A stretch of DNA of 52,602 nt from a virus. Taxonomy: Duplodnaviria > Caudoviricetes. The notes under the pieces are model-generated. The model searched no databases. It was given only the letters and a program-made list of their open reading frames with translations, and was not told the DNA's origin. Shown piece after piece: positions 9,100 to 50,100 of this stretch; the first letter of the stretch is position 1, and each line of letters begins with the position of its first letter. The translations under genes were made by a program, and so were the position numbers. The DNA lies in IMG/VR virus record IMGVR_UViG_3300032246_000731, positions 1-52,602 of that record. One strand, written 5' to 3'.

Positions 9100-9112
9100 G
9101 TGTTTCGGTAAA

Positions 9113-11959: not shown

Positions 11960-11960
11960 T

Positions 11961-27317: not shown

Positions 27318-28034
27318 ATGAGTAAGCATAGAGTGAAAAAACGTTTTACGTCAGAAGTTAACGTGTTAGATTTTCAACCATATCTTCCGCAGAAGAAACA
27401 GCGAGTAAGCCTTCATGCACGAAGCGCCAATCAAAAGCAATACCTGGAAATGTTACAAGACGAAGCCATAAGCATCGTCTTAGCAATCGGCCCTGCCGGT
27501 ACGGGTAAAACCATGTTGGCTGTGCAGAACGGTATAAAGCTGTATCAGGAAGGTCTCGTTGATAAAATCATTGTTACAAGACCCGCCGTCAGTGTGGACG
27601 AGGATCTAGGATTTTTACCAGGTACGCTGAATGAAAAGATGGCGCCTTGGACAAGACCTATTTTCGATGTGTTAGGAGAATATTATCAAACTAAAGACAT
27701 TGCCAAGATGTTAGAAGAAGGAGTGATAGAAATAAGTCCACTAGCTTATATGCGTGGGCGCACATTTAAGAACGCATACATTATTGCGGACGAATGCCAG
27801 AATACTACAGTCAACCAGATGAAGATGCTACTGACTAGACTTGGGGAGGGGTCTAAGATGGTGGTTACCGGTGACCTGGCGCAAGCGGACCGTATGAATG
27901 ATAATGGATTAGTTGATTTTTGTAATTTGCTAACAAACAAATCACTTAAACACATTGACATTATCGAATTTGATCACAAAGATATTGAACGTCACAATGC
28001 AGTTAAGGAGGTGTTATCGCTGTACGGTGATTAA
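27318..28034 (+). CDS. phoH: PhoH-like ATPase
   Basis: GPAGTGKT, TRPAV, LGFLPG, YMRGRTF, DECQN, TGDLAQAD. Confidence 0.95.
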   Translation: MSKHRVKKRFTSEVNVLDFQPYLPQKKQRVSLHARSANQKQYLEMLQDEAISIVLAIGPAGTGKTMLAVQNGIKLYQEGLVDKIIVTRPAVSVDEDLGFLPGTLNEKMAPWTRPIFDVLGEYYQTKDIAKMLEEGVIEISPLAYMRGRTFKNAYIIADECQNTTVNQMKMLLTRLGEGSKMVVTGDLAQADRMNDNGLVDFCNLLTNKSLKHIDIIEFDHKDIERHNAVKEVLSLYGD

Positions 28035-29708: not shown

Positions 29709-30137
29709 TTATTGTTCGAAACTTGGACGAGAAAACGTGCTAGGATCAAATGTAGCATGTGATACTTGACTATGTGCGCCGAATGTATCTTCAGTAGGAG
29801 GTTCTTCACTAACTACTAAAATAGCTTTGATGTCTGCTCGACGTACAGTAATTTCTGTACCATCTTCTTCCTCGACGATAACACCACGGGTCCACCGACC
29901 ATGTTCAAGCAAAATCCAATCGCCAACTTTTACATCGTGTTGTTGTGGTCCAATAGCCCAAACTCTTCCCCAACGATGCCTGACACCTTCGCTTTTGCCA
30001 TCATCACTAGGCAACACAATGCCTCCCTTTGATACACGAGCATCAAAGTTCATATCTGTAATTAATACATTATCACGTATTGGAACAAGTTTGCCTTTTA
30101 TCTTGCTGGTTAAACCGGAGCTAAGTGATAAATTCAT
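29709..30137 (-). CDS. groES: GroES-like co-chaperonin
   Basis: LVPIRDNVLI, SKGGIVLP, GRVWAIGP, VKVGDWIL. Confidence 0.85.
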   Translation of the reverse strand: MNLSLSSGLTSKIKGKLVPIRDNVLITDMNFDARVSKGGIVLPSDDGKSEGVRHRWGRVWAIGPQQHDVKVGDWILLEHGRWTRGVIVEEEDGTEITVRRADIKAILVVSEEPPTEDTFGAHSQVSHATFDPSTFSRPSFEQ

Positions 30138-30381: not shown

Positions 30382-30894
30382 TTATCTGAGGAATTCCTGC
30401 CAGTCTAAATTATATTTTATACTGTCAATTTTGTGTACACCAATCAAGTACAGTATATAACTGGCAACACTGGATCCCCGGCCCACACCCCAGACTATGC
30501 TATTAGCTCTACAAGTATCTACAAAGTATTTTAACCAACGCAACAAGTCTATCATATTACGTTCTTTAAAGGCCGCAAGTTCTTCTGCGACTCTAGTATG
30601 TTGTGGATCCCACGGCGGAGTTTGCTCCCATATCCATTCTTCAATATCTAGCTGTTTATATTCATCAGGCATGTTCCAATTACTTTGGCAAGCTGAATCG
30701 TAATCGGATATTTCAAAGTGAGTTTCGTAGGGTTCTAAAAATTTAAAACCTAGTTGGGCTTCGAGTTGATTTATAGTATCTGTCCTCGAATCGACCAATA
30801 GCGTATCGGAGGCCGAAAACTTATGACCTTTATACAAAGCTTCGAACAAGTCTTGTTCGTTGAAAATTGGATTACTATATTTGTCTAGATGCAT
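30382..30894 (-). CDS. Stand-alone fragment of DNA polymerase III alpha (DnaE) region
   Basis: RVAEEL, YFVD...GVGRGSSVASYILYLIGVHKIDSIKYNL match DnaE; ends before the catalytic PDxD. Confidence 0.8.
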   Translation of the reverse strand: MHLDKYSNPIFNEQDLFEALYKGHKFSASDTLLVDSRTDTINQLEAQLGFKFLEPYETHFEISDYDSACQSNWNMPDEYKQLDIEEWIWEQTPPWDPQHTRVAEELAAFKERNMIDLLRWLKYFVDTCRANSIVWGVGRGSSVASYILYLIGVHKIDSIKYNLDWQEFLR

Positions 30895-31130: not shown

Positions 31131-32480
31131 TTAGTTGTATTCGCCAATGTAACGCATATAAACGTTTGAACCGCCATCGCGAGTCCATGCTTCGATTACT
31201 TTTGGATTATCACCAGTCAATGCTGTAATTGTAGTAGCTACTGTAAATGTTCCGCTACCACCACCGCCCGAAAATCCAACTGTTGGATTGCTAGTGTATC
31301 CATCACCATAGCTGGTAATGTTAATGCCACCGATTGTAAATTGCATTACAACACGAGCGCCGGTTCCTTGTGTAGTACCTGTTCCGCTGAGTGAGCTAGT
31401 AGAGTATGAACCGTTGCCTAATGGAAGTGGTAAAGTTCCACCGCTTACAACTTGTAAATTGCCGATTGGCCCAGTACTGTCCGCAGTTACATAAGTTATA
31501 GTTACACCGGTAGCGCCAGCTTGAGCGGATTGACTCATTTTAATAGAATTAGCTGGCATCGAAGCTGTACCAGCGACACCGGTAGCTGTTACCCCAGTTG
31601 GGTTATAATCGCTAACCGTAGTACCAACTTGCAGACCTGCACCGCTGATAGCGACTCCTACAGCAATATTTCTAAAATCACTAACAGCAGTTATGTTTAC
31701 TTGGCTATTTGTTGTTGTAGCAGTAAATGTTTGATTCAACGAAGTAACTTGTAAAATAATACCAGGGAAGGCATTAACAACCATCTGATCGTTTAATTTA
31801 TATCCGTTACCTGAATAGCCTCCAGAAACAGTAGCCGATAAACAAGAATACGTAGCAGTGCCAGTAGCGTGTGTACCACCTGATTGTAATCCGCCACCAC
31901 TGAATTGAATAGTAGTTGCACCAGTAAATCCTGATCCACCTTGACTAACAGTTACAGTAGCTAAACTTTCTCCACCTACTGTAATACCTTTATTGATTGT
32001 ACCTGGCAATGTTGGAAAAGCAGTATCGTAACGTAAAACACCTGCGTTCTCTGTTGAAAAACTTGGAATCTGCACAGCAGTTTGATTACTATAAATCATT
32101 AAACGTACAGCCGCATATTTGCCACTAGTTGGCCAATTCTTAAATGTTAGAGTAGCATTAGTAGTAAGTGTTACACTTTGTAATGGCCCATCTGTAACAC
32201 TAATATCTGTGTTAGTTGAAATAGTTCCTTTATCTAGTGCAACACCGTAAAATGTTTTAACTACAGCATTTGACAGCACGTTTTGTCCAAAGTCATTTGC
32301 GGAATTTTTAAATGCCGAATTGTTTTGAAGGGCTGTAATTTCAGTACTAGCTTGTCCTAGTCCTGTTTTAATTACACCAAAGTTATCTCTAAAACCTTGG
32401 CTATTATTATCTTGCCCAGCAACTGGGTATGTGGCATCTACTGAGCCAAAGTTGATTAAACTTGCGGTTGGGTTTGGCAT
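31131..32480 (-). CDS. Tail/baseplate-associated structural protein
   Basis: YPVAGQDNNSQGFRDNF N-terminal motif, Gly/Thr-rich beta repeats (GSGFT, GDGYTSNPTV); CTAAATA upstream. Confidence 0.7.
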   Translation of the reverse strand: MPNPTASLINFGSVDATYPVAGQDNNSQGFRDNFGVIKTGLGQASTEITALQNNSAFKNSANDFGQNVLSNAVVKTFYGVALDKGTISTNTDISVTDGPLQSVTLTTNATLTFKNWPTSGKYAAVRLMIYSNQTAVQIPSFSTENAGVLRYDTAFPTLPGTINKGITVGGESLATVTVSQGGSGFTGATTIQFSGGGLQSGGTHATGTATYSCLSATVSGGYSGNGYKLNDQMVVNAFPGIILQVTSLNQTFTATTTNSQVNITAVSDFRNIAVGVAISGAGLQVGTTVSDYNPTGVTATGVAGTASMPANSIKMSQSAQAGATGVTITYVTADSTGPIGNLQVVSGGTLPLPLGNGSYSTSSLSGTGTTQGTGARVVMQFTIGGINITSYGDGYTSNPTVGFSGGGGSGTFTVATTITALTGDNPKVIEAWTRDGGSNVYMRYIGEYN

Positions 32481-32520: not shown

Positions 32521-35500
32521 TCATACCGTTGTAGCATGATTATTAAATACTAGGTATTTATCGCTAGATTGACCTGTTACAGAATCTATTATATAACGAT
32601 CTGCGGTATAATCTAGGGTTTTAAAGTCAAAACCACTATACTTAATATTTAAAATGATATCATCCGCAGTTCCGGGCAAACAATAACAAAGTGGAACTGC
32701 TAGTTTGTATCCTAACTCCAATTTCTGTCCTGGTTGTATACTGCGCATCCAAAGCGGCAGATAATTGCGTTCAGATTCGCCAACAGTAGCAATACTCTTT
32801 CTCCAGTTAGAAACACTGCTAATGTAATGTTTGTTAGGTGAATTGTCAGATATATTGTATGCTGTGCTATCAATTGTAACATTTGATATCGGGCGATCTA
32901 GCCAACTTTCTGCTAAATTTAAACTAGCAGTATCGGTTGGATTTGCCCATATTGCGTTGCTGATATCACTGGTTAATTTTAACTGATCGCGAACATTATT
33001 AACAACGAATTCGCTAGGTGCTTGTGCGTTAGGTTCAAGCGGATCGATTATTTGCAAATAAACCACTTCGTAAATGATATTTTTATTTTTAATTGCGGCC
33101 GCTTTAGTAATGCCGCCTACATGGAATCTCTTTCGCTTATGGTTTAAACCCATAGCACCTAAATACTTGGCCGCGTTTGAAGTTTCAATGCCTGCATAAA
33201 TTAACATGGCTAAATCTTTTCTAACTCCAAAGTTTGGATCGCCCGGACGGAAAACGCTTGAAGTTGTAAAAATATCTGTATCTGAAATAAATTTTCTAAA
33301 GTTTGTTCGCTGAGCTACATTTAGCAATGGTTGAACTTTGAGATTGCTGTATAATTTTTGGTTAGGTGTGCTGACAGTTAATACAAAATCTTTAACGCTG
33401 TCAGATAATCCGTACTGATCTTTAACATATACTGTAAATTTATAAATTCTGTCAAATGTAGTTACACCACCGTCGATACTAAAACTAGGATTAGCAGAAT
33501 CAAATAAAATTAAACCTCGTGTGCCAAGTATATCATATTGATGATTGGCATCGATTGTGGTAAATTTTGCATCTAATTTAAGAGCACTATCGTCGATGGT
33601 AGTAAATCTTGCAACATTCGGAGTACCATATTGATTTACTTTGCCAACTAGTTCTCCATAAGTTGTTAATTCTATACCGGGAGGTAATGTACCAGACGTG
33701 ATTGTATAAATTAAATTACTATTAAGCACTGTTGATGCTGATATTTGTAAATCAGATACAAAGTTTGCAGGGATAGTTCCAAGATTAGAATCAGTAATCC
33801 ATTTTATAGTATTATCAATGTCGCCGATTATTCTTAAATTAAATGTTCGTCGGGCAAGTATAGGCTGAGTATCGCCGCCTGATCTTGTAGCTATAACTGA
33901 AAAAGAATAATTTTTAGCAACGGCAGGTTGGAACGGAATTCTTCCAGCAATAAAAACTTTATTATCGACAGGATTAAATGTGAGCCCTGGAGGCAATTCT
34001 GCTAGCCTCCAGTATAAAGTAGCACCGTTATTGGCAATAAATGTAATACCTGATTTATGTGCAGTTGTACAAATATATGTTCGAGTATTATAAGTAACTG
34101 CATCGTCAACTCTGTATAGGGCGTTGGTTTTCCAAGCATCGGTCGCACCCAGCGTAAAAATAACAGGATATGAATCTACTATTTCTAAAACTTCTAACTG
34201 GTATGTAACATAATTGTCGGCTCTAGCAACCCCTAAATTTCCACCAGTGAGCCATATAGGTTCTTGTAAGAATGTAATATCCGCAGTAAACAGATCGCTG
34301 TCGTTCGTTAATTGAGTGTAGTCTGCATAGAAACTGTCGTCCCCAATTACAAAAATTGAAAACTTTCTTTTTACAACAACATCGCCTGTTGATACACTGA
34401 TTAAAAATTCGTAAGTCTGATTGAGTGCTCTTGGAGCCTTTGTGGGTGTACTGTAGTCAAAATCTACAGTATCAAAGATATAACTATCGTAACCGTTAGA
34501 ACTTCTAATACCAAAGTCAAAGTACGTTGTATCATAAAATACATCATCATACGTGCCATTACCGCTGGTCTGTAGTGCAATCGCTTGAACTGGTTCGACG
34601 ATACCTGATAAGATGCCGCCAGAAGATAAAGTTAACCCGGGAGGCAAACTGCCATCGCCGGCCGCTATGAAATATGTTAACGCCTCACCGTCTGGATCAA
34701 ATGCTTCTAGTTTATAATTAATTACTGATTTACCTAATGCAAATTTTTGTCCATGTCGGCCAACTGCTAACAATCCAGGCGGAGTAACTATAACTGGCAA
34801 TTGTCCGCCGTTAACAACTATGTTAAACGTTCTATCAGAAATTTCAGTACCTAATTGAGCACGTATGCAGAATGTAAAAGTTGTAGATCTCACAACACCA
34901 TACGGAACACCAACAATATAATGTCCTTCTATTCGCAATCCTGGAGGCAAACTTCCTGATATTACTTTAAATGTAGGAAGTGTTGGATTTGTTATAGTAG
35001 TTGGAAATGATCTTGCAGTAGCTAAATCAAATGTTGGATTAAATAAATCCGCACGTTCTACTGCTACAAACGCATCTTTTTGTAGTTTAATAGTATCGGT
35101 ATTACGTAGAATTATATCAGATAAAGATGTGCCAGCAACCCAGTTATATTCCTCAGTAGGCCATTTTTGATTTTCCCAATACAAATTATCACCGTCTCTT
35201 ATTTTAACAAACTGATCGGATATAATTTTATGGAATGTTTGACCTACCATTGCACCGGGATAACGATTTTCTGCTAGTCCGCCTACCCACAGTTCGACTT
35301 TATCAATGTCAATATATGTATTTTTTAATGCTGTTGCTACCGTAACATCACCGGTAATGTCTGAAAAATTCTTATATGCAGGTAAACCTAACAAGGTACG
35401 CATCTGATTTAATAATGGTAATCCTAAATCTCGGCCACGTTGAATATTTGTTGCGGCTAAATCTAGTGCGGCAGGAGGAGCGTCTAACAAATTACGCAAA

Positions 35501-36750
35501 TCTTCAATAATATGTACGTCTAATTTATTTGTAATGTCCGCGGCCAGTTTACGCAAGAATCCGTCTGCACCGCCATTACGTTCGTAGTTAGGCCCTTGAA
35601 TGCCAAACGCTTCAGCTAATGACAGCGCCTCTGTAATATTACCTTGTTCGTCTATTCTATCTTGCGCACCTGACACAATGCTATGCCCAAACCGCATAGC
35701 GGCCGCTGAAAATTCTATAGGTATACTAGCATCAATACTTTGTTTAAATCCTGTGTATGCAGGTACAGTGCCTATAACTTTTGGCAACCATTCGTTGTAT
35801 GTTATCTTCTGAAATTCAGCAATAACAATAGCACGGGCACGTTGGTATAATCTTTCTCCGTCCCATGTAGGATGTAACGCTTTTAGATAATCTACGATCT
35901 TATTATGTTCTCTCAGCCATAGAGTTTGCATACTTAATAAATCTGGATTTTCATTGCCTCGAGGATCGCCTAGTATATAATTTCCATTTCCGTCAACTGG
36001 AGGGTACATACCATTTTGAGAAGTTCGCAATTTACCAGTTGTTGCTACACTTCCGCCTTCGCGTAAAATAACAGGATTGTTAAATGGTGTTGGTCCCTGA
36101 GCTACACCTGGAGGGTATGCTACACCGTAAACGACACTAAGATCAATCCAGCCTGTAACATCATTTATTGTACGTCCTACAACTTTATTAATGCCGGTCC
36201 CTGGTGCTAGTTGATTACGTGTAACAGGAATAAAACTTCCCGGTGTTAATTTAGTATCGCCAGCAGGAATAATTACAGGTATGAATGTATGACCTTCACG
36301 TGCAAATTCTAAATCGTGTGTTAAGAATTGACCAAACGCATACATGAATCCGCTGTATCTAGTTGGGTCAAATTCTTCGCCTTCGTTTACACGGTCCCAT
36401 ACTACATTATTACTAATAGTTCTAGGGTTAGGCAAATCGGTACGCATAGCATATATGCCGTCTGCATAACTGTTTATTTCAGCACGGGCAAATATTGAAC
36501 CTGCTGAATTACGTAATGGTGCTGTTGGATGATGTCCAGTTCCATCATAAGGTGGAGGTGTTGGAGTACCAAATTGCGGAAGTATTGGTAATGGAATATT
36601 TACAATTACACGCTCTTGAAAAGTTCCCTTATCGAAACTTGTTGTTCTAGAATCGAATGTAGTTCTTGCCTTATCTAGTGTAAGGTCCCCTGTTATTCCT
36701 GAAATACCAGGCAACGTGTATCCGGAAGGTTGTGTCCAAATATTAAGCAT
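32521..36750 (-). CDS. Baseplate wedge-like virion protein with Ig-like repeats and an inserted animal-type haem peroxidase domain
   Basis: Peroxidase motifs in roughly aa 100-565; four LPPG(L/I) Ig-like repeats; C-terminal LPLWMRSIQ...DRYIID; located among tail genes. Confidence 0.8.
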   Translation of the reverse strand: MLNIWTQPSGYTLPGISGITGDLTLDKARTTFDSRTTSFDKGTFQERVIVNIPLPILPQFGTPTPPPYDGTGHHPTAPLRNSAGSIFARAEINSYADGIYAMRTDLPNPRTISNNVVWDRVNEGEEFDPTRYSGFMYAFGQFLTHDLEFAREGHTFIPVIIPAGDTKLTPGSFIPVTRNQLAPGTGINKVVGRTINDVTGWIDLSVVYGVAYPPGVAQGPTPFNNPVILREGGSVATTGKLRTSQNGMYPPVDGNGNYILGDPRGNENPDLLSMQTLWLREHNKIVDYLKALHPTWDGERLYQRARAIVIAEFQKITYNEWLPKVIGTVPAYTGFKQSIDASIPIEFSAAAMRFGHSIVSGAQDRIDEQGNITEALSLAEAFGIQGPNYERNGGADGFLRKLAADITNKLDVHIIEDLRNLLDAPPAALDLAATNIQRGRDLGLPLLNQMRTLLGLPAYKNFSDITGDVTVATALKNTYIDIDKVELWVGGLAENRYPGAMVGQTFHKIISDQFVKIRDGDNLYWENQKWPTEEYNWVAGTSLSDIILRNTDTIKLQKDAFVAVERADLFNPTFDLATARSFPTTITNPTLPTFKVISGSLPPGLRIEGHYIVGVPYGVVRSTTFTFCIRAQLGTEISDRTFNIVVNGGQLPVIVTPPGLLAVGRHGQKFALGKSVINYKLEAFDPDGEALTYFIAAGDGSLPPGLTLSSGGILSGIVEPVQAIALQTSGNGTYDDVFYDTTYFDFGIRSSNGYDSYIFDTVDFDYSTPTKAPRALNQTYEFLISVSTGDVVVKRKFSIFVIGDDSFYADYTQLTNDSDLFTADITFLQEPIWLTGGNLGVARADNYVTYQLEVLEIVDSYPVIFTLGATDAWKTNALYRVDDAVTYNTRTYICTTAHKSGITFIANNGATLYWRLAELPPGLTFNPVDNKVFIAGRIPFQPAVAKNYSFSVIATRSGGDTQPILARRTFNLRIIGDIDNTIKWITDSNLGTIPANFVSDLQISASTVLNSNLIYTITSGTLPPGIELTTYGELVGKVNQYGTPNVARFTTIDDSALKLDAKFTTIDANHQYDILGTRGLILFDSANPSFSIDGGVTTFDRIYKFTVYVKDQYGLSDSVKDFVLTVSTPNQKLYSNLKVQPLLNVAQRTNFRKFISDTDIFTTSSVFRPGDPNFGVRKDLAMLIYAGIETSNAAKYLGAMGLNHKRKRFHVGGITKAAAIKNKNIIYEVVYLQIIDPLEPNAQAPSEFVVNNVRDQLKLTSDISNAIWANPTDTASLNLAESWLDRPISNVTIDSTAYNISDNSPNKHYISSVSNWRKSIATVGESERNYLPLWMRSIQPGQKLELGYKLAVPLCYCLPGTADDIILNIKYSGFDFKTLDYTADRYIIDSVTGQSSDKYLVFNNHATTV
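35070..36450 (-). other. Peroxidase-cyclooxygenase superfamily (An_peroxidase) domain
   Basis: PNPRTISN, FGQFLTHD, TGWIDLSVVYG, GDPRGNE, REHN, LYQRAR, RFGHS, DLAATNIQRGRDLGL, ELWVGGLAE, QFVKIRDGD. Confidence 0.92.
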
Positions 36751-36775: not shown

Positions 36776-37567
36776 TTAAGCGATTCGGCCAAAGTCTAAA
36801 TCATTGTTTATTAACGGTCCCATACCAGCTGATATAAATCCCATGTCTATATCAATAGTATTGTAGTTTGCAATAAAAATACCCATGTCCATATTAAATG
36901 CTTGTGTCTGTAACATCATGCCAAACATGGCATTTAGAACACCTACATTAATGCCATATACGTTTGTTTCGATATTTCCAGTACCTACTGTATCGATAAC
37001 TCTACGTCCGTTGATGTTAAGGTTTCCGCCCAATACTGGAGCAGTGTCATTTTGTACACCTGCACCACTACGCAAGTCAATGATGTTTGCGCCGGCAACA
37101 ATGTTAATGCTGTTATCACTGCTGGTTAAACTTTTAAATTCAGCAGTAGTGTCATTTTTATCTTTAAAAATTCCAATGGTAGAACTAATGGTTGTACCGT
37201 CAGCAGTTCCATAAACGCCGGGATCGGTTGGATAGCTTAGTGTTATACTAGTAAGTGTACTATCAGTACATAACCAATGACCGTTATACAGAGGATTTGT
37301 ATTGCCGTTCAAATAATAATATTGGCTAGTAGCAGGAATAACACTTTGCTGACTAATGACTAGTGTTACTGAAAATGGGCCAGTGCCTGCTTTGTTAAGG
37401 AACCTACTAACTACAATGGAATTTACACCCAGATTTGTACCTTCGGCAATCGGAACGTCAGTTCCTAATAAACTAAAGTTTTCGTTTACTTTTCTAAATG
37501 CTGTACGCAAGTCGTCGCCTGACCCGTCGTTTGCATAGCTTCCTAAATTAATTGTTTGAATTGCCAT
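36776..37567 (-). CDS. Tail fibre/baseplate protein
   Basis: INLGSYANDGSGDDLRTAFRKVNENF N-terminal motif (T4 gp9/gp10-type), PVLGGNLNING; GTAAATA upstream. Confidence 0.75.
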   Translation of the reverse strand: MAIQTINLGSYANDGSGDDLRTAFRKVNENFSLLGTDVPIAEGTNLGVNSIVVSRFLNKAGTGPFSVTLVISQQSVIPATSQYYYLNGNTNPLYNGHWLCTDSTLTSITLSYPTDPGVYGTADGTTISSTIGIFKDKNDTTAEFKSLTSSDNSINIVAGANIIDLRSGAGVQNDTAPVLGGNLNINGRRVIDTVGTGNIETNVYGINVGVLNAMFGMMLQTQAFNMDMGIFIANYNTIDIDMGFISAGMGPLINNDLDFGRIA

Positions 37568-37598
37568 ATGTACGCTCTCTTTTAGTATTTACCGTATT

Positions 37599-38132
37599 TT
37601 AATAAGTGCCGCCCAAGGCCACACGACGCCATGTGTTTGTCGATATACAAATATACATATAGGTAGAATCGTAGCTGATTTGCCCAACTGTACCGGTAGC
37701 ATTTGATGCTTTGGTACCAGTTGGAATAACGAGCCCGTTTGGTACAGTAACAACACCAGCGCCATTTATAGTCAAACTGCCAGCATATCCGGGCACGTTG
37801 AAACTCATAGTGCTGGCTGTTGCGTTGTAAGGAACATAGCCACTTGTATTGTAATTTAATGAATCATTAGCAATACCAAATGCTTCATTACCTGTACCTA
37901 TACCAAATACAGCACCAGTAGTACCATTTGCAATCTTTAGTGTATAATTTGCTCCACCGGTAGTATCTGTAATGGTTTGACCTGTTGTAGACAGTGCGAC
38001 ATAATTATCTACATCGAATCCCGTAGAATATAACTCAGTAAAGTTGGCATTAATTTTGTTAAATGCCGTGCGCAACGGATCACCGTTTTTACTGTTGGCC
38101 GCTGTGCCTATGTTGATAGTTTGTTTAGCCAT
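37599..38132 (-). CDS. Short tail fibre-like protein
   Basis: INIGTAANSKNGDPLRTAFNKINANF; C-terminal GTVGQISYDSTYMYICISTNTWRRV. Confidence 0.75.
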   Translation of the reverse strand: MAKQTINIGTAANSKNGDPLRTAFNKINANFTELYSTGFDVDNYVALSTTGQTITDTTGGANYTLKIANGTTGAVFGIGTGNEAFGIANDSLNYNTSGYVPYNATASTMSFNVPGYAGSLTINGAGVVTVPNGLVIPTGTKASNATGTVGQISYDSTYMYICISTNTWRRVALGGTY

Positions 38133-41100
38133 TACATTCTCCCTACAGCAACTTGGATGACTCCAGCTTCGCCGTTGTCTTTATTTTCTAATGCCTTACC
38201 AATAATGCTACCTAGTTTTGGATCAGTAGCTTTAACAGCATAACCAGGAGTACTACTTGTTGTTAGCAAATCACCTTTACGTACACGACCCACTACCTTG
38301 ACTGGCACACGACCTTGTAGAGCAATCAAGTTCTTAAGTCCCGGACATGCCGCATACATTGAGTACGCCGCATTGTCTGAAACAACACCTGCTACTCTTG
38401 TATCGTTCATTTCGCCGGTAACTGTTACTTCTTTTTCACCGCCAAACACTAGAACAGTACCAACTTCATACTCTTCGTCGCCTTCATAATATTCTGCCAA
38501 GTCACCTGCATAGGTAGCTTGTAGTTTACTTGCACCGACTAGTGTATACACACCAGTCATTGGACAGTCTAAATCTTCGCGGCCTGTTGTAATACTGCGT
38601 GTAGTAAATGTACCAACACTGCAATTTAATGAACTACCGCTTGCTAACGACCATCTACCAGTTAACGTACCGTCTGTAGTGTTGCCACCGCTAGTCAACG
38701 ATGTTACAGTAATACTAGCACCTGTTTGACTAAAATCATGCGAGCCATAGTGTGTAGTAGTCGCTGTTGAACTACCGAGACTCTGCATAAACTTAACGTT
38801 ACCAGGTGTGTAAAATTCTAAAGTTGTGCTGTTTATTTGTAAAATGTTTCCACTTGACGGCAAGCCAGCAATCTTAATACCTTTAACATCAATCAATCCA
38901 GCACCGGTTGTTTTAACTATACTATCGTTACCACCGCTAGTGCTAATTGGTATACAATCGTATGCTTTAACTCCAGTTCTTATTACAGCACCTGTTGAAC
39001 TAGTTGATGTTGGTATATCTCCATTACGGATACCGTCACCGTTATTAACCATTGCTGTTGTTGTAGTCACGCTTACTGCCGCATTGCTTCCACTAATGTT
39101 AGCTAACACACTATTTGGTGCTATCCAAGACATCTTAGCAACTGCGATACCGTCACTTGTCGATGTAGCAGTTTTCAATGATACCCAACCGTCAGTAACA
39201 GTAAGTATATTATTGTCAAAACTTGCAAGGCCACTGGCCGCTTGTTTTTGTTTTGCTGTACCTGTTGGAGCTGACGCACGGGAAGTAGCTATAGTCAACA
39301 GTAATTTGCTTTGTTGTATATCAGCAGTTGAACTTACTTTGCCATCATTGATTGAACCATCTCTAGTAAATGTCATTGTGCCGCTTGGTGATGTACCAAC
39401 AGCACTGATATTAACAATAACAGTATTGACAATTCCAGTGACAACTTGGCCACTACTGAATCCAGTACCGCTAAGTACCATACCTCTAACAATACCAGTT
39501 GTGCTGGCTAATGTTAATGGAATAGTTGAACCGCCGGTAACTGTAGTTCCGCTTGCTTGGAAATTATTAATAACATACGTTCCTGCTACACCAATACCTG
39601 TCTTGTAATCAACAATAACTGTATTTGCCGCAACAGTTCCGCCTGTTAATATCATACCTGGAACAATAGTAATTGTCGGAGCACCTGTAACAGTTAATAC
39701 ATTACCATCAATAGTTCCAGTCAACGAACCAGCAATAACACTTGTACCGCCCGATGTATATGCGGTAGTAACTACAGCACCTTGTATAGTACTGAGCAAG
39801 GTGGAACCGTCCCAACTAATGTTTACGTCACTAGTTGTATCAAATGAAGCATTGGTCCATGCACCAGTTCCAAGTGCATTATTTGTATTTGATGTACCGT
39901 AAACTAATATTTGTCCGTTAATAACACTTGAACCCATGCGTTTAGCAGAGTCTTTAACTTTATAGATACTATCAGTATCATTAACAGTTGTGTCAACATA
40001 AAACTTGTTAGTTGCATCATTTTGTAATAGCGGTGTACCTAAACTACCGATATTAAATCCGCCCATTGACATGTTGCCCTTCATTGGCAACTGTCCACTT
40101 AAAGCCATAAATCCCGGGCCAATCAATGCTGTAGCAGGGGTACTTGCTCCAGAATGTTGTAGTCCTAGACGATTATCAATATAACCACGTGTGGCACTTT
40201 GTGTTGGTACTGTATCAGACGCATCGTTGGTCATTGAACTATCAGTTGAGAATTCACTAACTGTAACACCGCGCTTAAATCCTAAACCGTCCAAGTTACT
40301 CAACGCAATTGATGCTGAGAATGTAACAGTACCAGTACCTTGGTCAACTGTGAAGAAGCGACCCACACGGAAGATACCGTTTTGGTCAGTGGTCACATAG
40401 AACACACGACCCACTGTTTCTTCCAATACTTCTTTTGTCTGGTCTGCTTTTTGGTATGGATTACCGTAAATCTGATATGGATAGTTAGTAGTGTTGTAAC
40501 CGCCTGTACCGATATCCAACAAGTCATGAGCTGAACAACGACAAGTGCTGATGCGTGTAGTAATCTGCGCGGCCGCACCTGCTTGATAACCTGCACGTAA
40601 TGGTGTAGTAACTGTACTACTCATTGGACGACTGATACCAGTAGTTGATGGTGTAATGGTAGTTGCACCAGTTCCATATTGAGTGAAGAATGTTATGTTA
40701 CCAGTAGGAGTACTGCTTGGAGCACTACTTAATGTTAGTGTCACTCCATCAATGTCAACCGCAGTAACTTTTTGATCTGCAATAAATCCAGGACCGCGTA
40801 CTAACATGCCTACACTAATGCCAGTAGTACCGCTTACTTTTAATGTAACGCCAGTTGATCCGCTTGGATTATAAGTCGCAACTATTGCACTTTCTGGATC
40901 TATGGTATAGGCAAGAGTTATACTTGTAGTAGAACTAGCAACCACTTGTACATATTTGTTGTAGAGAGTAGTTGAGTTGCCAGCCATTAGATAATAAGTA
41001 TCAACTACAGGCGCAGTTGATTGTGTTGGTATTTCAAATGTTGTATACCAAGGGCCACTAACGCTACTGTATGTCCAAAAACCTAAAACTCCAAATGGTG

Positions 41101-44100
41101 TACTACTCGGAACTGCACTCAATACAACAGTTGTGTATGGCTCGCCTGTAGCACTTGGAGTAGCACTGATAACATATTGTCCATTAGAAAAACCGTTACC
41201 AACCACAGTTGCGCCAGCTGTAATATATTGTGTTCTATCGCTAGTGTAAACTTTAATGCTGGTAGATAAGTTGTTATAAGATAAACTCTGTGTAGTAGCA
41301 CTACCTGTAGCGGCCGCGCCTAGCACAATAGTGTTGCTTGTAATAGTTATAGTAGCACCCGTGTTATTGCCGTTACCGAGCGCTGTTACAGTAATAGTGC
41401 TGGTTGACTGAACACCTGTGTTATTAAAGCTAGTGACTGTAGCACCAGCACCAACACCGCTACCTGACAGTTGTGCTCCAACTACCAGGGTATTAAATGC
41501 TGTTAGTTGTACGTTTGTAATAACGTTACTACCGGTGGTAGTATTACCAGTAAATGTAGCAGTTGAACTAGTACTTTGGATAATGTTATCAGTTCTACCA
41601 GTTATACTACCAGTGCCAGTTGTAATGTTTGCAAGGGCTGAACCACCATATGTTTTACTAATAGTAATTGCATTGGTAGCTTTACTAATAACATAAAAAG
41701 TATTTTGTCCTACTTCCGTGGCAATCGTAAATGTTAAATCATTTACACCGTCTGTACCACCCAAGTTACCACCTGACAATGTAACGGTCTGGCCAACAGT
41801 GTAGTTTTGACCAGGAGTGGTCATAGTAATACTAGTCACACCAGTCCATGTAGTGCCGGAACCTGTTTTAGTAACAGAGAAGATTGCGCCACTGCCACTG
41901 CCATTGCCAATCTTAGCTTTGACACCAGTATAAGTGCTGGCTGATACAGTACTTGTTCCTGTAATACTTGTATATGTTGTACTAGTAGTCAATGCTCCTG
42001 GTTGCGGAATATTACCAAAAGTTGTGCCGCTACTTGTAAATGTAATGGCATTACCAACAGCTACCCCGCTTGCATCAGCTAATGTGATTGTGCTTGGACT
42101 TGTAGTGCTTGTTGCAGTTACAACAATGTTTCCAGGAATATTTGTACCACTAATATTTGTACCAGCAATAATATTAGTCAAACTACTTACACCCAATATA
42201 CTTGTGCTACCACTTGTAATATTACCAGTTATGGTTCCAGTGGGAACAAAAGTGGCCGCTACCTGTCCTCGGCTAGTCCATCGACTAATCGTAATAGGTG
42301 ATGAACTTGTACTTGTGATACTGTATTGGTTAGCGCCTAATGTGATATATGGAACAGTTGCTTTGGTAAATGTCAATGTCCCTGATGGAACACTGCTTGG
42401 CCCAGCGTTTAATACAATAGTATTGCTTACCAGTGCATATATTAAACCAGTAGGAGTTCCTGCGGTACTTGTAATAAATGTCGGGCTTGTTGCAATAGCA
42501 TTGGCATAGCTTGAACAAATTTGGATGCTTGTAACGCTGTTAACTTTACCAACATAGAAATTAACACCAGCAGTCATATTTGATGTGCCCGCCGCGCTGT
42601 ATGTTGTTCCTCCAACAATCAATGATCCAGTGCCGCCAAATGTGCCACTGATATTAATCGCCTGGCCGATCACATAAGTTCCAGATGTAACTGTTATTGT
42701 TCCAACTGTGTCTGCAATTACAAAAGATGCGATTGAACTAGGAGTGATACTGCTGATAGTTTGAGCACTGGCAAATCCAACGCCCTTAATGGTCATGCCA
42801 ACTGTTAAACCAGCAGTGCTTCCGTACATAAATGTAACGCCACTGCCTGTGGCTGTTGCGGCTGAACTGATACCTAAAGATGATGCTCCATTATTAGTAC
42901 TGATAACAGTTGTTCCTGCAGGAATTCCCTTGCCGAGAATGATTTCACCAACAACGATTCCAGTAAAACTACTTACGTTGGTAATGGTTGCTGAGCCAGA
43001 TGTAATGGTACCAGTAAAGTTTCCGCCTACTACAACAGTAGTTCCGCTTGATCCAGTTGGATTATAACCTGTAAAAACGGTAGTTGTTACCGGAGGGGTA
43101 TAACTGGCAATTGAATGAACTTTGCCACCAAATGCAAAAGCGTATGTGCCTTTGTTAACTTGGTCGATATTTGCCTGCGGTCCAAACACGTTAACAGCAA
43201 TACGTGTATCCCCAGGTGTTGAACCCATGGTCTTACTGCTATCTATCGGGTCAGTCTTGGTAACGTTTGCAGTATCTGCTTGGAACAAGTAGTACTGGAA
43301 TGATTGGTCTGTGCTCAATACCGCTTGATAGGCAGGTAGTACTTCGTTGGTAGCTTCTGTTAAGTTGTATGTTAAAACACGATAGATACTACCCAAGTTG
43401 TCTGCAAACTGAACCGCAGTACTTGGTCGTGTCGGATTAACGTTGTCAATTTCGTAGAACTTAAAGTTTTGTAATACACGAAGCTGTACTAGCTGACCAT
43501 CATATAACGGAGCGGCCAAGCCAGTACTTGATGTTCCACCAGTTCCGCTGGTACTCAATGTGCATAGTAAAACATTTTGTCCACCAATAGTAGCACTGGT
43601 GTATGCACTGGTCGACTGTATTGAAGTAACAGTGCCCGCAGTTGGAGTTGTACCTCCAATCACTTTGTAAGTGATACTTGTGCCTGAAACAATACTTGTT
43701 ATATAGACTGTAGTTGGTGTGCCACCAAAAAGTGTACCAGTGCCAGCAGTAGCAGATAATGTTGTACCAACTGCCAAACCAGTAGTTGAAGTCATTCCTG
43801 TAATGGTCGCGGTCCATGGGCCACTACCACTAATTGATCCAACAGTTCCACTACCAAATGAAGTAGTGGCAGTTATGTTAAATGTGGCATATACACCTAT
43901 ACCTGAACTTGATGTGGCATAGGTATTAGAGTACACCCCGCTACCACCCGCTGTTGGAACACCTGTATAGGTAAATGTTGATAATCCAGTATTAGTTACA
44001 CCAGTCACATACGCCACTAGGTCGCTACCAGCGTTTGAACTAAATGTCGAACCTGCCGCGGTTGCTGTGGCAGTTGTACTTAGAATAACTGTATTACCAC

Positions 44101-47100
44101 CTGTAGTGGCCAATGCTGTTGTGTTAAACGGAATGTTCGGGCCAGTAATCACTGAACCGTTGAAATTATAAGTTGTTGCACTTCCGCCACTAGCACCAGG
44201 ATCACTAGTATAACGTAGTGTTAAACTGGTCAATGTACTGGCAGTACATACAAATGTTCCATTATAACTTGCAGTAGTATTGCCAGCGATGGTATATAAT
44301 CCACCAACTAACGGTGCAGTGGCGACTGCACTGATAATATAGGTAACATAAATGTTGGGAGCACTGCCAACTTTTGTATCAAATGTCGCGGCAGTAGCTG
44401 ACGGGAACATGATCGTAGTATAGTTTGTACTACTGTAGACACCCGGATCGCTTGGGTAACTAATTGTAATACTTGTATACGTACCCGTAGTAGCACTAAA
44501 TGTACCATTGTAATTACTATTGCTGTTACCAGCAACAACATATCCAGTGGTTGCACTTGGCGCAACTGATTGTGTTGGAATTTGGAAAGTTACTAGATAA
44601 GGACCTGTTCCAGTTTTGCTTATATATCCTTGAACTAATACTGCTGGACTCGTACGAACAGCGACCAATGTACCCGCACTGGCAATAAAGTTTTGACCAG
44701 TTGTTGTATTACCAGTAAACTTACTTGATACACCGCCTAAATTCCCACCGCTAACTGTAACAGTGTCACCGATAGTCAGTGCCTGACCGTTAGTCGGAGT
44801 GCTATCGGGTGCTCCGTTTAAAGTTAATGTGATACCGTCTAGGCTTACCGCGGTAACTTGCTGTCCTCGAGTAAATCCTACCCCAGTAACAGTCATTCCA
44901 ATTACTACTCCAGCGGTGCTGGCAACAACTAGTGTTGTACCAGATGATCCGGCCGCGGTATATGTTGTGCTGACATATTTGTAATTTGTTCCCACACTTC
45001 CTGTCGGAACATACACAGTTGTATGACTAATACTGTTAATTTGATAACGCACAAGTCCTTTACCGGCCAACGTGTGATCAATTTCCAATTCACTAATTTG
45101 TGTTGGGAAATAATCATAGCCGTAGATATAAACACTAATAGCACCAGTGTTCATGTTACCATAGAATTGGTTGTTAGTTGAACTTTGTGGTAAACTTGTT
45201 GGATTAAAGATACGTGCTACTTGCGCCAGGTTTTGTGCAAGTGAAACACTATCTGGTTTCTCAGTTACATCATAGCCGCTGGCACGCAAAGCGTAGGTAC
45301 CGTGTGCTGATGATGAACCAATAGAACGAATCTGACCACCATTTAACGCCCAGAAGCTAGTCCAGCAATAGTAGGTAAATGTTGAAACTTGTTCTGTGAG
45401 TCCGCCGTTGGCCGCCAGGATAGCATAACCTAAGTCGTTAATCATTGCAAAGTCGTTGGCCAACATACTCTTATTACCAGCCATTTCAATATTGATAGCT
45501 TGGCCAGTTCCTTGTAACCACGGAGTTTGTGCTCCGAGATTTAATTGAACACTACCACCAATGACATTGCCGTTAACATCGAATGTCTGTGTGTAGTTGC
45601 TGACAGTATTAATTTGATAACGACCGCCTTTAACAAAGAAAGCAGTTGGTGTTTGTGGAGCACGAACATCAAGCCCGCTGTTGACGCCACCGGTCACAAT
45701 TAGTGTAAAACCATCTGCACTTGCGTATGTAATTGTTCCAAGTAAACGTCCTGTGAATCCGTCAACAAACTGACCGCCAGCAAACACCTGTTTATTTTGG
45801 CTACGGCTAAAACTTGTAGCAACTTGTCCGTATGGTGATTTAGATTTAATTTGTCCTTCTGGATCGAGTACCATGGCAAATCCACCATGCCCTTCCATAG
45901 TTAAATTGTTAACGCGAACTGCATTACCGCATAAAAACAAGTCAATGTCTCGGTTGTTTAATGGTGTACTATTAATATCTAATGGGTCAGTCAAATAATG
46001 ACGTCCATAATTGCTTGTTGTGTATAGATGCCAAGTTGTCGGTGCTAGTACACCAAATTGAATCGCTGATACACTAGCAGTAGCACCGCTTGTGCTACCT
46101 GTAATAGCACCGCTTAATGTGCTCATTACACCTGATGTAACTTTATAAGTTATGCTATTTGAACTTACAGACAATATTTGTCCAGTAGCCGACGAAGTGG
46201 TACCAGTTTGTGTAACTGTTTCACCAACTTGGAAAGTATATCCATTGGTATAGTTGATTGTCATTGTACCAGTTTGGCTAAATGGGTACATGACTGTACA
46301 ATTCATAAAGTTACCAGAAACACTGTCAACAACTGCTAGTCCTGGTTTACCGTTTGAATCTAACACATCTGATTGGAAAACATATCCTAACCACTGTACA
46401 CTGGCCTGCATATTGCTACTTAAAGTAATAATAATTTTGCCAATAGTTCCGCTGATTGTAGCACTGACTAATGGGCCAATCGTGGTGATTGAATTAGTGT
46501 TGAATGTACCAGGATCACTTAGGTAACGCAATGTAATTGAACTCGATGTACTGGTGGTACATGCAAATGTTCCGTTATATGATAAGTTAGTATTACCTGC
46601 AATGGTATATGTTAGTGTCGTACTAGGCACGTATGTTTGGGTAGGAATATTGAACAACACATCATATGTTGTTCCACTTACTAATGTCTTACTAACAAAG
46701 CTAGTAATATTTGTAGTAGGAACATAATCGGCGGTGGCGTCAATCGGTCCAATTTGCATACCATCGATTACTGAGTCGCGATAGAAAAATAATTTTCTCC
46801 ATGGACTTTGACTGATACGATCCAATGGTCGTATAATTGTTCGACGGAATTCGTCACCTTTGATTGAAACGTTGCTGGTCATTCGAATTGGATAATCTTC
46901 GTAGTACACTCCTGCTTCAACAAAAATAACAATTTGTAATGCGCCAACACTTTCAGCAAATTCTAATTCTTCATTCGCTACAAAGAAACCAGGTTGCAAT
47001 AGCTGACATGTAATTGTATCAGCATTACTGCTAACACCGGGACTGTAACTTAAAATATTAGCAGTGGCATTTGACCCAACACCACGTAAAATTTTGCCTG

Positions 47101-50100
47101 GTAAAATGTTGTAGTCGCCTGGAGGACATTGATCAACATAACCGTTGCCGCCGTTACTAAATGTAACAGTATAGATACCAGAACCGAAAGATGGTGTCGG
47201 TGCTACACCAATACCATTTTGTACAATGTTTAACATTACTGCATAATTGCTAGTAAATGTGGTGATAGCAGTTAGAATAAATGTTAATGTACCACTTGGG
47301 GTTCCGGCCGGAGCTGAACTTATTGTAATTGTTGTTCCGTCAACGGCAGTAACAGTTCTTCCGCCTAAGAATCCAGCACCGGTTAATGTCATTCCTGGTA
47401 ATATTGTACCAGATATTCCGCTGACAACTATCTGAGTACCTGTTCCGCTTGAGTATGTTGCTGTGGCACTATACCCGCTGTTAGCATTTTTAGTCCCGTC
47501 GATAGTTTGACTTACCAACGTCTGATATCTCGAAGCACTTGTTTGATTTAAAACTTGTAGTCCAAGTGTTCGTGCATATTGAATGCCGTCAACAGTTTCG
47601 GTATTTTGTGTGCCAATAGCGATTGATTTAGCTGACGAATTTTTATAATAGCTCTTACCAGCATTGATACTTTGATATGTTCCGCCAGTCAACAAGTCAA
47701 TGCTCATAGCATCGACAATATAGCCAATATCTCTACGGCAAGTAGCTTCGTTATAGTTAAATCCACCTTTATATTTTATATTCAAATACGCTGTAGTTGC
47801 TTGAGCAACAGCATACGAGTTAACAACCATAGTTGTTCGAACGCCTACAAAACCTGAAAGAGCGTAAGGACTGATAGATAAATCGGGTTTAGTGACTACT
47901 AAACTAGGAGGATTTAGATCGATGACATTAATGATTCTATCCCATTTGTCATTTACTGTAGTCGATGCACTACTACCACCAGGATAGTTAGTATCGATAG
48001 TTTGCACAACGGTATATGTAGTAGCGGTTGTAATACTCCATGTTCCTGGATTGCTTGGGTAAGATACAACCATAGTAGTATCTGTACAAGAAACAACACT
48101 AACAGTAGTATTAAATCCCACAGTTGTATTGCCAGAAATTGCAACACTAGTTCCAGGATCCATTGGAATAATTGTTTTAGGAATATTTAAAGTTACCAAG
48201 TATGGGCCAGTGCCAGACTTACTAACATACGTTACTGTTTTTGGTAGATATTGTTGATATAAAGATGCTGGAGTATTATTTCCTGCAACTGCGGCCGATA
48301 ATTGTTGTGCATATCCTAGCGCGGCTATTTTTGTAGATTTTTCACTAGCATCAATGGTACTTGTATAAGTGGTCACACCATTTACGACTGCACTTGTCCA
48401 GAATAAATTAGCGGCGGTTGTTGATCCGCTAGTACTTCCGTAAGTTACATCATATGCAACAGCTTCGACTAATGAGCGTATATCTCTGATCCATTGATCT
48501 TTCCCATCACTATCAACGTATGCGAAAGAAGGATAGTTTTGTTTCAACCAACCCGCTACTTCTTGACTAATAAATGCAGTATTTTTAACCAACATGATTG
48601 CGGCATTTTTAGGACTTGCCGCCAACGTTGATGGTGCGTTAAGTGATAACAAAGATCGGTATGTCAGACTCTTTGTTAGTGTATCAATAATCACTTGGAA
48701 TAAGCTAGTAATTCCTGTAATTGCACTTGAATTATTAATATACGGATAACTGTTGTTAACGAACAATACTATTGAGTTAATAGTTGTTGATTTGTTTGTA
48801 TTAATATTTCCATAGATTGTTACAAGTGTTGCGGCACCTAATGCATAATTTGGGTAAGTAATGGCCGGCGCAATATTGGCTGATAATAATCCGGCATAAG
48901 TTGCGCTAACATTCATAGTAGCTGATGTTAACGAAACCGACACACCGTTTAATTGAGTGCTTATTTTAAAATGTGTAGTGTCGGTGATTTCAATTATGTA
49001 ATAAGTATTTCCAGCAGTAATGCCACCTAAGTAAGGAGTTAAAATTGTAGTTCCAGTACCATATATTCCAGGATCAGATGGATAACTTAATACAATAGAA
49101 GTTGCTGTTCTTGAACTAACTGTGAACGTACCGTTGTATGATGTATTACTATTTCCGCTAACTGTAAAGCTAGAGCCAACTACCGGCAATACTGTTTGAG
49201 TTGGCACTACTACTGAAACCAAATATGGACCTGTTCCAGTTTTGCTTTGAAAACCTGTCACTGTAATAGTCGATGTTAAATCAAATGTGATAGGCATACC
49301 AACAGTCATGTTAACCGTTGATGTAGTTGTTAACGCACTACCAGTAGCATTAGTAGCTAACACGCTAAATGAAGTGCCTGATATTAGCGATATAAGATTT
49401 GAAACTCTGGAACTTTGAGCAGAGCCGCCGCTATAGGTTTGATTCTGATATTGACTAACACTATTTTGATAAACTTGCGCAGGGCTGGTATTAGAAATAA
49501 TTGCTTGTGCTAGCGTGTTTATATAAGCAATGGCACCCTTGGTCGCATTAAGTTCGCTCGATGCTATTTGCCTAGCATAGTTAGCCCAGTATCGTTGTCC
49601 TGCATAAATTGTTTTGCTGTTGCCGCCATACTGTTGATCATAGGCGATAGCTTCTACGATATACTTTACATCTCGTTTACAAGTTGATTGACTGTAGGCA
49701 AGTTTAGGATAGTTAGCACCTAACCATGCAACAATTTCTGCTTGTATAAATGATATGTTGCTTATCAATAATGTTCTTGCCGATACTTGACTTGTTGTTG
49801 TAGAAACTAACGGAGTCATTGATAATGCAGGCTCAATTCCTCCTTGAATTACAACTATCATAGTACTAATGTTATTTGTAAATGAATTTACTGCCGCATC
49901 TACTGGATTACCTAGCAGTGATGAACCGTTAATCAATGCGATTTGTAATTGCTGTAATGCTCCAATAATTTCAGTAACTGACAATCCAGTATTAGCATAT
50001 GAGAAATATCGAGCCATCAATATACTTTGATAGTTAGAATTAAACACCATATCGATATTAAGTGCATCGATTACTAGATTCAAATAAGTGTTAAGTGCTG

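Follow-up and report, generated by a model that had tools for sequence, protein, structure and literature searches.

A haem-peroxidase cassette in a putative tail protein of an uncultured jumbo phage

Tail fibres and tail spikes of phages carry depolymerases—glycosidases, lyases, esterases, and peptidases—as modular, exchangeable domains of receptor-binding tail proteins, which vary between close relatives. To our knowledge, the known enzymes of phage tails are all hydrolases or lyases, and none is known to be a haem-dependent oxidoreductase requiring H2O2. The protein described here is 1409 amino acids (aa) long, features an animal-type haem peroxidase domain, and is encoded on the minus strand at 32521..36750 of the IMG/VR virus record IMGVR_UViG_3300032246_000731. 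The window, i.e., the whole stretch of DNA analyzed, covers this record completely (52,602 bases). It is a linear sequence with a CheckV completeness estimate of 13% and is, hence, a fragment; the source is an uncultured jumbo phage. The open reading frame (ORF) had already been called in a first-pass annotation made from the letters of the window and is confirmed by the ORF list, its translation, and Pfam.

In the peroxidase–cyclooxygenase superfamily, the only characterized one-ester enzyme is, according to PMC5787809, peroxinectin A (peroxidase A) of Dictyostelium discoideum, DdPoxA (PDB 6ERC). According to the same source, Ile-100 replaces the ester-forming Asp in DdPoxA, and a single Glu–haem ester is present. 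The Fe(III)/Fe(II) potential is −0.276 V and lies below that of the two-ester enzymes; I− and SCN− are oxidized at >1e8 M−1 s−1 and Br− at 15 M−1 s−1, and Cl− is not oxidized. The 1409-aa protein is read here, at a probability of roughly 60%, as a peripheral tail protein of the fibre cluster with an exchangeable haem-peroxidase cassette that is exposed on the virion, carries one haem ester, and oxidizes donors at the cell envelope.

Peroxidase domain and haem pocket

From the N to the C terminus, the protein consists of an N-terminal segment, the peroxidase cassette, a cadherin-like Ig array with a CBM5/12-like insert, and a conserved C-terminal module; all of its features lie on the minus strand. 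The An_peroxidase domain spans residues 68–561 (35068..36549) and matches PF03098 at profile positions 4–530 of 530 with an E value of 1.6e-114 and 383.8 bits (cut-off 25). A six-frame search repeats this match (E 1.6e-117, 386.9 bits). In a sequence search of the PDB, 64 distinct chains match the domain at E ≤ 0.001. The best of these is 8s6c_A—a 528-aa protein deposited as 'Lactoperoxidase'—at E 4e-75, followed by 6erc_A, which is DdPoxA, at 1.4e-69 and by a myeloperoxidase (MPO) at 1.3e-49; mammalian MPO and lactoperoxidase (LPO) overall lie at about 1e-47 to 1e-49. In PHROGs, no family covers the peroxidase domain.

The motifs of the haem pocket were located by alignment. The distal motif GQFLTHD (residues 140–146, 36313..36333), aligned to 8s6c, 6erc, and MPO, contains Gln141, the distal His145, the Ca ligand Asp146, and, at the position of the ester-forming Asp, Thr144. 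The Ca-binding loop TGWIDLS (residues 199–205, 36136..36156) aligns to the loops of the same three proteins. With the Asp after the distal His and the T-x-x-x-D-x-S loop, the distal Ca2+ site is complete; some relatives carry a Glu after the distal His (GQFITHE). GDPRGNE (residues 261–267, 35950..35970) holds the distal Arg264 and the haem-ester Glu267, RFGHS (residues 353–357, 35680..35694) the proximal His356, and ATNIQRGRD (residues 433–441, 35428..35454) the partners of the proximal His, Asn435 and Arg438. The distal triad Gln141/His145/Arg264 stands opposite the equivalent residues of 8s6c, 6erc, and MPO. The only departure of the haem pocket from solved peroxidases is Thr144 for the ester-forming Asp. 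The pair of Asp and Glu that forms two esters is, hence, incomplete, and the two-ester state is not required for membership in the superfamily. Residues 60–575 contain no cysteine.

By its sequence, the domain is an intact member of the animal haem peroxidase family PF03098 of the peroxidase–cyclooxygenase superfamily. The first-pass annotation had described it in these terms and had quoted the same motifs, including the exchange of Asp for Thr; the full-length profile match and the presence of every quoted motif bear it out. It had further placed the domain between a short N-terminal segment and the first LPPGL repeat, which holds, and had put its length at roughly 460 aa, which is too short: the domain measures 494 aa by Pfam, and the insert measures 535 aa. 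Its mapping to MPO and LPO is correct insofar as the motifs align. The likeness is loose, however, because the domain is a bacterial-type enzyme and its nearest solved relatives are 8s6c_A and 6erc_A.

Distribution, exchange, and origin of the cassette

A search of viral contigs with the whole protein yielded nine loci, eight of them with the peroxidase domain. With the domain profile, 24 loci were obtained, eight on contigs already among the earlier matches. In all 24, the domain is part of an ORF beginning with the same N-terminal motif, and the 19 complete ORFs among them all share the same C-terminal sequence. The distal motif, the Ca loop, and the Arg/Glu motif are kept in 24 of 24 loci, each with Thr at the ester-Asp position. 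The proximal-His motif is found in 23, the remaining locus being cut earlier by a contig end, and ATNIQRGRD in 20, the other four also being cut by contig ends. Apart from the Asp, the catalytic and haem-ligating residues are unchanged across viral sequences that are only 65–70% identical. As the window consists of one metagenomic contig only, the fusion could be taken for an assembly chimera or a decaying remnant. This is next to impossible: the same fusion with the same motifs and junction architecture occurs on 24 other, independent viral contigs, the reading frame is open throughout, and the ratio of nonsynonymous to synonymous divergence (dN/dS) of the cassette is 0.05–0.18 in 11 of 11 gene pairs by the Nei–Gojobori method. 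The chimeric junctions of which the first-pass annotation had warned are thereby set aside.

The boundaries of the cassette are apparent from locus L005, which encodes an 882-aa protein without peroxidase that is 93% identical to the window protein in the best aligned segment. In the DNA alignment, 1605 nt of the window (residues 57–591) face 24 nt of L005—an 8-aa linker—in frame and between flanks that are 85–95% identical. The optional cassette of 535 aa occupies 34978..36582, the aligner placing the gap at 34979–36583, and consists of the peroxidase with a Pro-rich lead-in ahead of it and a tail of 22 aa behind it. Five proteins form the 90%-identity cluster to which the window protein belongs: two of 1409 aa; two of 882 aa; and one that is N-terminally cut. 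The scaffold part (residues 575–1409) has 1501 homologues at E ≤ 0.001 among 7999 candidates scored, and the contigs of the listed homologues are up to 378 kb long. PF03098 is present in six of the best 120 of these 1501, and most of the others are 780–950 aa long and feature He_PIG only. The idea that the domain is an optional insert, raised in the first-pass annotation, is, hence, supported by homologues with and without it.

The scaffold tree was calculated with FastTree from 113 rows. The cassette is present in 23 of them, a selection from the loci and hits, and absent from 90; three rows were excluded, as the motif search missed their first Ig repeat. On this quick-method tree, the presence of the cassette requires at least eight changes, seven of which are forced by starred branches. 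Shuffled presence requires 21 changes on average, and none of 500 shuffles was as low as observed. Within gene pairs, the synonymous divergence (dS) of cassette and scaffold is sharply discordant: 0.106 versus 2.06 for the window and L004; 0.18 versus 2.43 for L019 and L020; 0.87 versus 0.12 for L017 and L018; and 1.68 versus 0.79 for L028 and L029, with values above about 2 being saturated. The two parts, hence, have different histories, which speaks for recombinational exchange and not for mere loss. An ancestral cassette with a simple loss in L005 was considered and dropped because absence is the majority state and the cassette recombines. These comparisons define the boundaries and the distribution of the cassette and establish that it recombines and is under purifying selection.

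The closest stand-alone relatives are bacterial 'peroxidase family proteins' from Methylobacterium, Mycobacterium metagenome-assembled genomes (MAGs), and Acetobacteraceae, which are 43–50% identical over the whole domain; several of them feature RTX repeats (PF00353). Among 120 listed hits of bacterial type, the ester site carries Asp in 105 (GQF[ILV]DHD) and Thr in 13, and the motif is missing in two. The full library contains 11,199 relatives of the domain at E ≤ 0.001. The domain tree, another quick-method tree (IQ-TREE quick, LG+G4), has 62 rows. In it, 20 phage-type domains form one group (Shimodaira–Hasegawa-like approximate likelihood ratio test, SH-aLRT, 93) nested among bacterial sequences with Asp; the sister of this group (99, starred) is a small Thr-bearing group of P0148, P0185, and P0170. 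The best solved matches, 8s6c_A and 6erc_A, would be compatible with family 6—the bacterial short forms and DdPoxA, named as in PMC5787809; the domain tree itself is made of bacterial sequences and has no labelled reference set of the superfamily. The sequences are best explained by a single derivation of the cassette from bacterial peroxidase–cyclooxygenase enzymes.

The same cassette is also present, as judged by sequence, in a canonical tail-fibre protein. P0145 (761 aa) carries it at 65–66% identity between a fibre-like N terminus and fibre repeats, with the distal motif GQFITHD and a Pfam domain match at E 4.1e-122, and its C terminus matches phrog_7389 'tail fiber protein' at 2.9e-7. In P0265 (1555 aa), the cassette occupies residues 734–1246 and follows an N-terminal He_PIG repeat. 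P0264 (1500 aa) contains the cassette and has a C-terminal end unlike that of the scaffold, and P0267 (1644 aa) keeps the C-terminal end of the scaffold and has an extra stretch before the main Pfam match.

A circularly permuted An_peroxidase was observed outside the window in P0148, one of six 626-aa metagenome proteins (P0146–P0151). It begins with a signal-peptide-like stretch, has the Ca loop first and the distal-His segment (GQFLTHE) last, and carries Thr in place of the ester-forming Asp; its Pfam match is split in two, and the better part corresponds to profile positions 143–530. A viable permutation of this kind suggests that the N and C termini of the domain are near each other, as would be favourable for insertion into a loop.

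Scaffold protein and gene neighbourhood

The N-terminal segment comprises residues 1–56 (36583..36750) and is kept in all 24 peroxidase-bearing viral loci, as seen in alignments. It carries the family motif M-x-L-N-[IV]-W-T-x-x-S-G-Y, ends in LPLPI, and is common to the homologues without peroxidase. A 28-aa stretch within it, PGISG...SFDK (residues 14–41, in the region 36667–36750), is found in the sub-clade of the window and is missing from L006–L010. Behind the cassette, the Ig array starts with the repeat VISGSLPPGL from residue 596; its top-scoring repeat is the He_PIG (dystroglycan/cadherin-like Ig) repeat at residues 677–720 (34591..34722; PF05345, E 9.4e-12). The CBM5/12-like carbohydrate-binding insert at residues 872–900 (34051..34137; PF02839, E 2e-5) scores 25.0 bits, slightly below the Pfam cut-off of 26.2. 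Among 10 aligned sequences, it is present in the window and L005 only, and the precomputed annotation of a further scaffold homologue, P0003, contains PF02839. The conserved C-terminal module (residues 1128–1409, 32524..33369) is the defining feature of the scaffold family.

An AlphaFold model, calculated for the 882-aa form from 93 sequences, has a predicted local distance difference test (pLDDT) score of 73.5 and a predicted template modelling (pTM) score of 0.47. It features a chain of β-sandwich domains followed by an α/β module; its residues 17–41, in the region of the 28-aa stretch, have a pLDDT below 50. A fold search of the PDB with this model returned cadherin and protocadherin ectodomains only. 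Among predicted viral structures, the model matched proteins named 'Ig' from uncultured Caudovirales (8e-55), the protein of Agrobacterium phage Atu_ph07 annotated as 'extracellular serine proteinase' (1.1e-31), and a protein of Klebsiella phage K64-1 (2.6e-21). Modelled alone, the C-terminal module reaches a pLDDT of 74.3 and has no fold match in the PDB at E ≤ 0.001. Its resemblance to 2H phosphoesterases (Usb1 and poxvirus cGAMP phosphodiesterase) is weak, with a best E value of about 0.1 and template modelling (TM) scores of 0.36/0.47–0.50, and the module lacks a conserved His; it is, therefore, not called a 2H enzyme. A C-x-C motif of the module (Cys1355 and Cys1357) is invariant across the family. 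The profile of the scaffold family found nothing better than E 0.55 and 0.74 among PDB sequences, PHROGs gave a marginal match to phrog_29085 in the Ig array only, and the search of the ESM Atlas for the identity of the scaffold gave no usable match. The label 'baseplate-type' of the first-pass annotation finds no support: no baseplate family and no wedge protein of the T4 gp6/gp7/gp8/gp10 type was matched in Pfam, PHROGs, PDB profile, or fold searches, and an adaptor resembling gp9/gp10-N is found in the neighbouring proteins but not in the 1409-aa protein.

In deposited phages, tblastn of the C-terminal module matched only Atu_ph07 (two accessions of the same phage) and Sinorhizobium phage Phosso, at E 3e-11 and 7e-10. 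Both feature a subtilase on the same scaffold family, encoded at 9355–13218 of locus L011 in Phosso and at 9106–12861 of locus L036 in Atu_ph07. The Phosso protein has Peptidase_S8 at residues 186–477 followed by three He_PIG repeats. An annotated tail-fibre or minor-tail gene is found at a distance of two genes in each of the two phages. The presence of a subtilase on this scaffold family in cultured rhizobial jumbo phages makes the scaffold look like a general platform for enzyme display. For Atu_ph07, 112 additional virion-associated proteins are reported (PMC6102473).

In the window, the scaffold gene is flanked by fibre-like genes. The downstream neighbour (31131..32480, minus strand) encodes a fibre-like protein of 449 aa, the N terminus of which, YPVAGQDNNSQGFRDNF, bears a related N-terminal motif; this gene comes next after the scaffold gene in the five of five related loci listed and overlaps the scaffold stop codon there. 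Upstream, three fibre-like genes of 263, 177, and 4433 aa (36776..51433, minus strand) have in common an N-terminal adaptor of ~35 aa that resembles T4 gp9/gp10-N. The adaptor matches phrog_677 at E 2.6e-7 and 4.4e-9, the N termini match one another in BLASTP at 2e-11 and 5e-11, and PF07880 is matched at E 4.4e-4, below its cut-off. The gene order is common to the window and five related loci, and the scaffold gene is co-oriented with the fibre-like genes. With fibre-like genes on both sides and a conserved order, the 1409-aa protein belongs to the tail-fibre module, its gene lying at the edge.

The giant 4433-aa neighbour (38132–51433, minus strand) is rich in Thr, Ser, and Gly. The 35-aa adaptor is all that it has in common with the products of the two small downstream genes. 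At its C-terminal end, ~125 residues match phrog_22593, a family of unknown function, at 8e-13. Its repeated units of ~60 aa, 'KTGTGPY...SYPSDPG', also occur as inserts in the scaffold homologues P0054 and L008. Beyond the 449-aa gene follow a DnaE-like fragment, a GroES-like gene, and a clamp loader. The fragment is a 170-aa ORF (30382–30894, minus strand) with a partial match to a DnaE-type DNA polymerase (phrog_11127, 7.8e-40); it takes the same place beside the fibre cluster in related loci and may be a piece of a split polymerase or a stand-alone piece. The GroES-like co-chaperonin (29709–30137) was named from its sequence by eye. Further genes encode a Clp-type ATPase (19372–21657; phrog_4871, E 4.8e-247), peptide deformylase (21650–22138), and PhoH (27318–28034); Clp-family proteins are also reported for Atu_ph07 and Rak2-like jumbo phages. 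No tRNA was found in the window.

Proposed function and comparison with known systems

The placement on the virion, the loading with haem, the catalytic activity, its substrates, and the biological role are inferred along the following lines. The 1409-aa protein would fold in the host cytoplasm, which the lack of cysteine in the domain fits, and would bind haem b and Ca2+. Glu267 would form the only covalent haem ester, since the second ester-forming Asp is Thr144. The protein would be mounted on the virion with the enzyme facing outwards beside the Ig-like and carbohydrate-binding domains, and H2O2 would be taken from the surroundings or the host surface. Easily oxidized donors at the cell envelope—iodide, thiocyanate, phenolics, and tyrosine—may then be oxidized, and chloride and bromide would not be, by analogy with DdPoxA. 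Such local oxidation could modify, loosen, or cross-link surface polymers during adsorption. The first-pass annotation had likewise supposed that the virion may display an active enzyme, which could remove H2O2, oxidize polymers, or form dityrosine cross-links. Recombination moves the cassette itself between homologous scaffold genes and, on occasion, brings it into a different tail protein.

The exchange of Asp for Thr predicts one haem ester, which argues against oxidation of Cl− and Br− and for iodide, thiocyanate, or one-electron donors; judged by DdPoxA, the phage cassette should be a one-ester enzyme for such donors. The Ig and CBM neighbours, the trading of the cassette between tail proteins, and its polymorphism among near-identical phages are all reminiscent of depolymerase modules and suggest that the enzyme plays an accessory part at the surface of the host. 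Its function would be tied to host or environment and would be comparable to that of depolymerase modules of tail fibres. More tentatively, the tail peroxidase might produce an oxidant that lasts only briefly—hypoiodous acid, hypothiocyanous acid, or radicals of the substrate—nanometres from the envelope and thereby cut polymers or cross-link the fibre to the cell. If so, it would represent a new class of virion enzyme: a cofactor-bearing, redox-active, depolymerase-like cassette traded between tail proteins, and the success of an infection would be bound up with the peroxide and halide chemistry of the surroundings.

Several points weigh against a virion-exposed, active peroxidase. The scaffold has no match to a characterized structural family in Pfam, PHROGs, PDB profile, or fold searches, and the 4433-aa neighbour has no Pfam family, its fibre nature being read from its composition and the motif at its N terminus. 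No gene for H2O2 production or haem supply was found among the ORFs of the window that were scanned. The effect of Thr at the Asp site is derived from an Ile variant of another lineage. Finally, near-identical phages without the cassette exist and, hence, both assembly and basic infection must be possible without it.

The missing structural-family match, together with the replication and chaperone genes that border the gene on one side, would also suit a non-virion protein that works inside the infected cell or is set free by lysis, for instance to remove H2O2 or to modify neighbouring cells. Such a protein is unlikely given the co-orientation with fibre-like genes and the stop/start overlap with the next gene in related loci, the extracellular-type Ig and CBM domains, and a size of 1400 aa that is typical of tail proteins; the N terminus is non-hydrophobic with no signal peptide evident by eye, and the same cassette is found in the canonical fibre protein P0145. 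A virion-mounted, active enzyme might instead harden the particle by cross-linking tail or fibre proteins through dityrosine or similar bonds. It would sit among very large fibre proteins, and cross-linking recurs in the superfamily, as in ovoperoxidase, peroxidasin, and the hardening of matrices. This is rather improbable, since phages that are nearly identical lack the cassette, the particle being viable without it, and no conserved partner substrate was identified.

Binding or adhesion could also be what the fold is mainly kept for, much as in adhesion proteins of the peroxinectin type, or the enzyme could be a poor catalyst: the entire clade has retained only one of the two sites for a haem ester, and the domain is embedded among binding-type domains (He_PIG and CBM-like). 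The constancy of all other catalytic and haem-ligating residues at 65–70% identity and the high activity of one-ester DdPoxA, as described in PMC5787809, make this improbable to a similar degree. Chemistry of the MopA type would consist of Mn(II) oxidation, possibly with reactive oxygen species, and would give Mn(III) or Mn oxide at the surface. The bacterial relatives of the domain include secreted forms with RTX repeats, and MopA of Erythrobacter SD-21 is described in PMC6247904 as a haem peroxidase that oxidizes Mn(II). This chemistry is very unlikely here, as the closest solved relatives of the phage clade are short enzymes of the halide or thiocyanate type. An exchangeable, virion-exposed peroxidase that acts on donors at the cell envelope is the preferred reading.

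Searched alone, the domain matches none of the 50,697 deposited phage records, also when hits up to E ≤ 1 are admitted. Among deposited phages, megablast of the gene gave nothing, and tblastn of the whole protein gave the C-terminal module of Phosso only. The literature searched, as far as its texts were available, contains no phage-encoded or virion enzyme of the family; the returns included mentions of KatG in a reference list, of ahpC as a viral metabolic gene, and of bacterial DUF4214 proteins. This agrees with the first-pass annotation, the author of which knew of no described virion enzyme of this kind. Enzyme modules as such are familiar from the tail proteins of phages; oxidative haem-dependent chemistry, by contrast, is not described for virions in the literature and records searched. 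A haem oxidoreductase that requires H2O2 would add new chemistry to the contact of virus and host and would make adsorption depend on redox conditions in the environment. With at least 24 other viral contigs, purifying selection, and recombination between tail genes, the cassette is not a one-off. The natural twins with and without the cassette, which are >90% identical, provide ready-made controls. By analogy with DdPoxA, the phage clade may offer a second, independent one-ester example in the superfamily, and a peroxidase that is free of Cys and folded in the cytoplasm may be easy to produce.

Compared with DdPoxA, the phage domain has the same distal and proximal residues and likewise lacks the ester-forming Asp. 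It features Thr where DdPoxA features Ile, and it is a Cys-free internal module of a 1409-aa protein, whereas DdPoxA is a secreted, glycosylated, stand-alone enzyme of a eukaryote. The bacterial short peroxidases (8s6c_A and those of Methylobacterium, Mycobacterium MAGs, and others) are 43–50% identical, and the phage clade nests among them; however, they keep the Asp and are stand-alone or RTX-tailed secreted proteins and not parts of tail proteins. The Mn(II)-oxidizing bacterial peroxidases of the MopA type belong to the same Pfam family and act outside the cell, as stated in PMC6247904; they differ in being very large RTX proteins, are likened here by description only, and have no known phage link. 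The homologues in Atu_ph07 (AUZ95088.1, 'extracellular serine proteinase precursor') and Phosso (XYS97278.1, 'S8 family peptidase') resemble the window protein in combining an enzyme, a He_PIG array, and the same C-terminal module and in adjoining tail-fibre or minor-tail genes. Their enzyme, in contrast, is a hydrolytic, cofactor-free subtilase, and the identity in the shared module is 23–26%. With the depolymerases of phage tails, finally, the phage cassette has in common that the enzyme domain is exchangeable.

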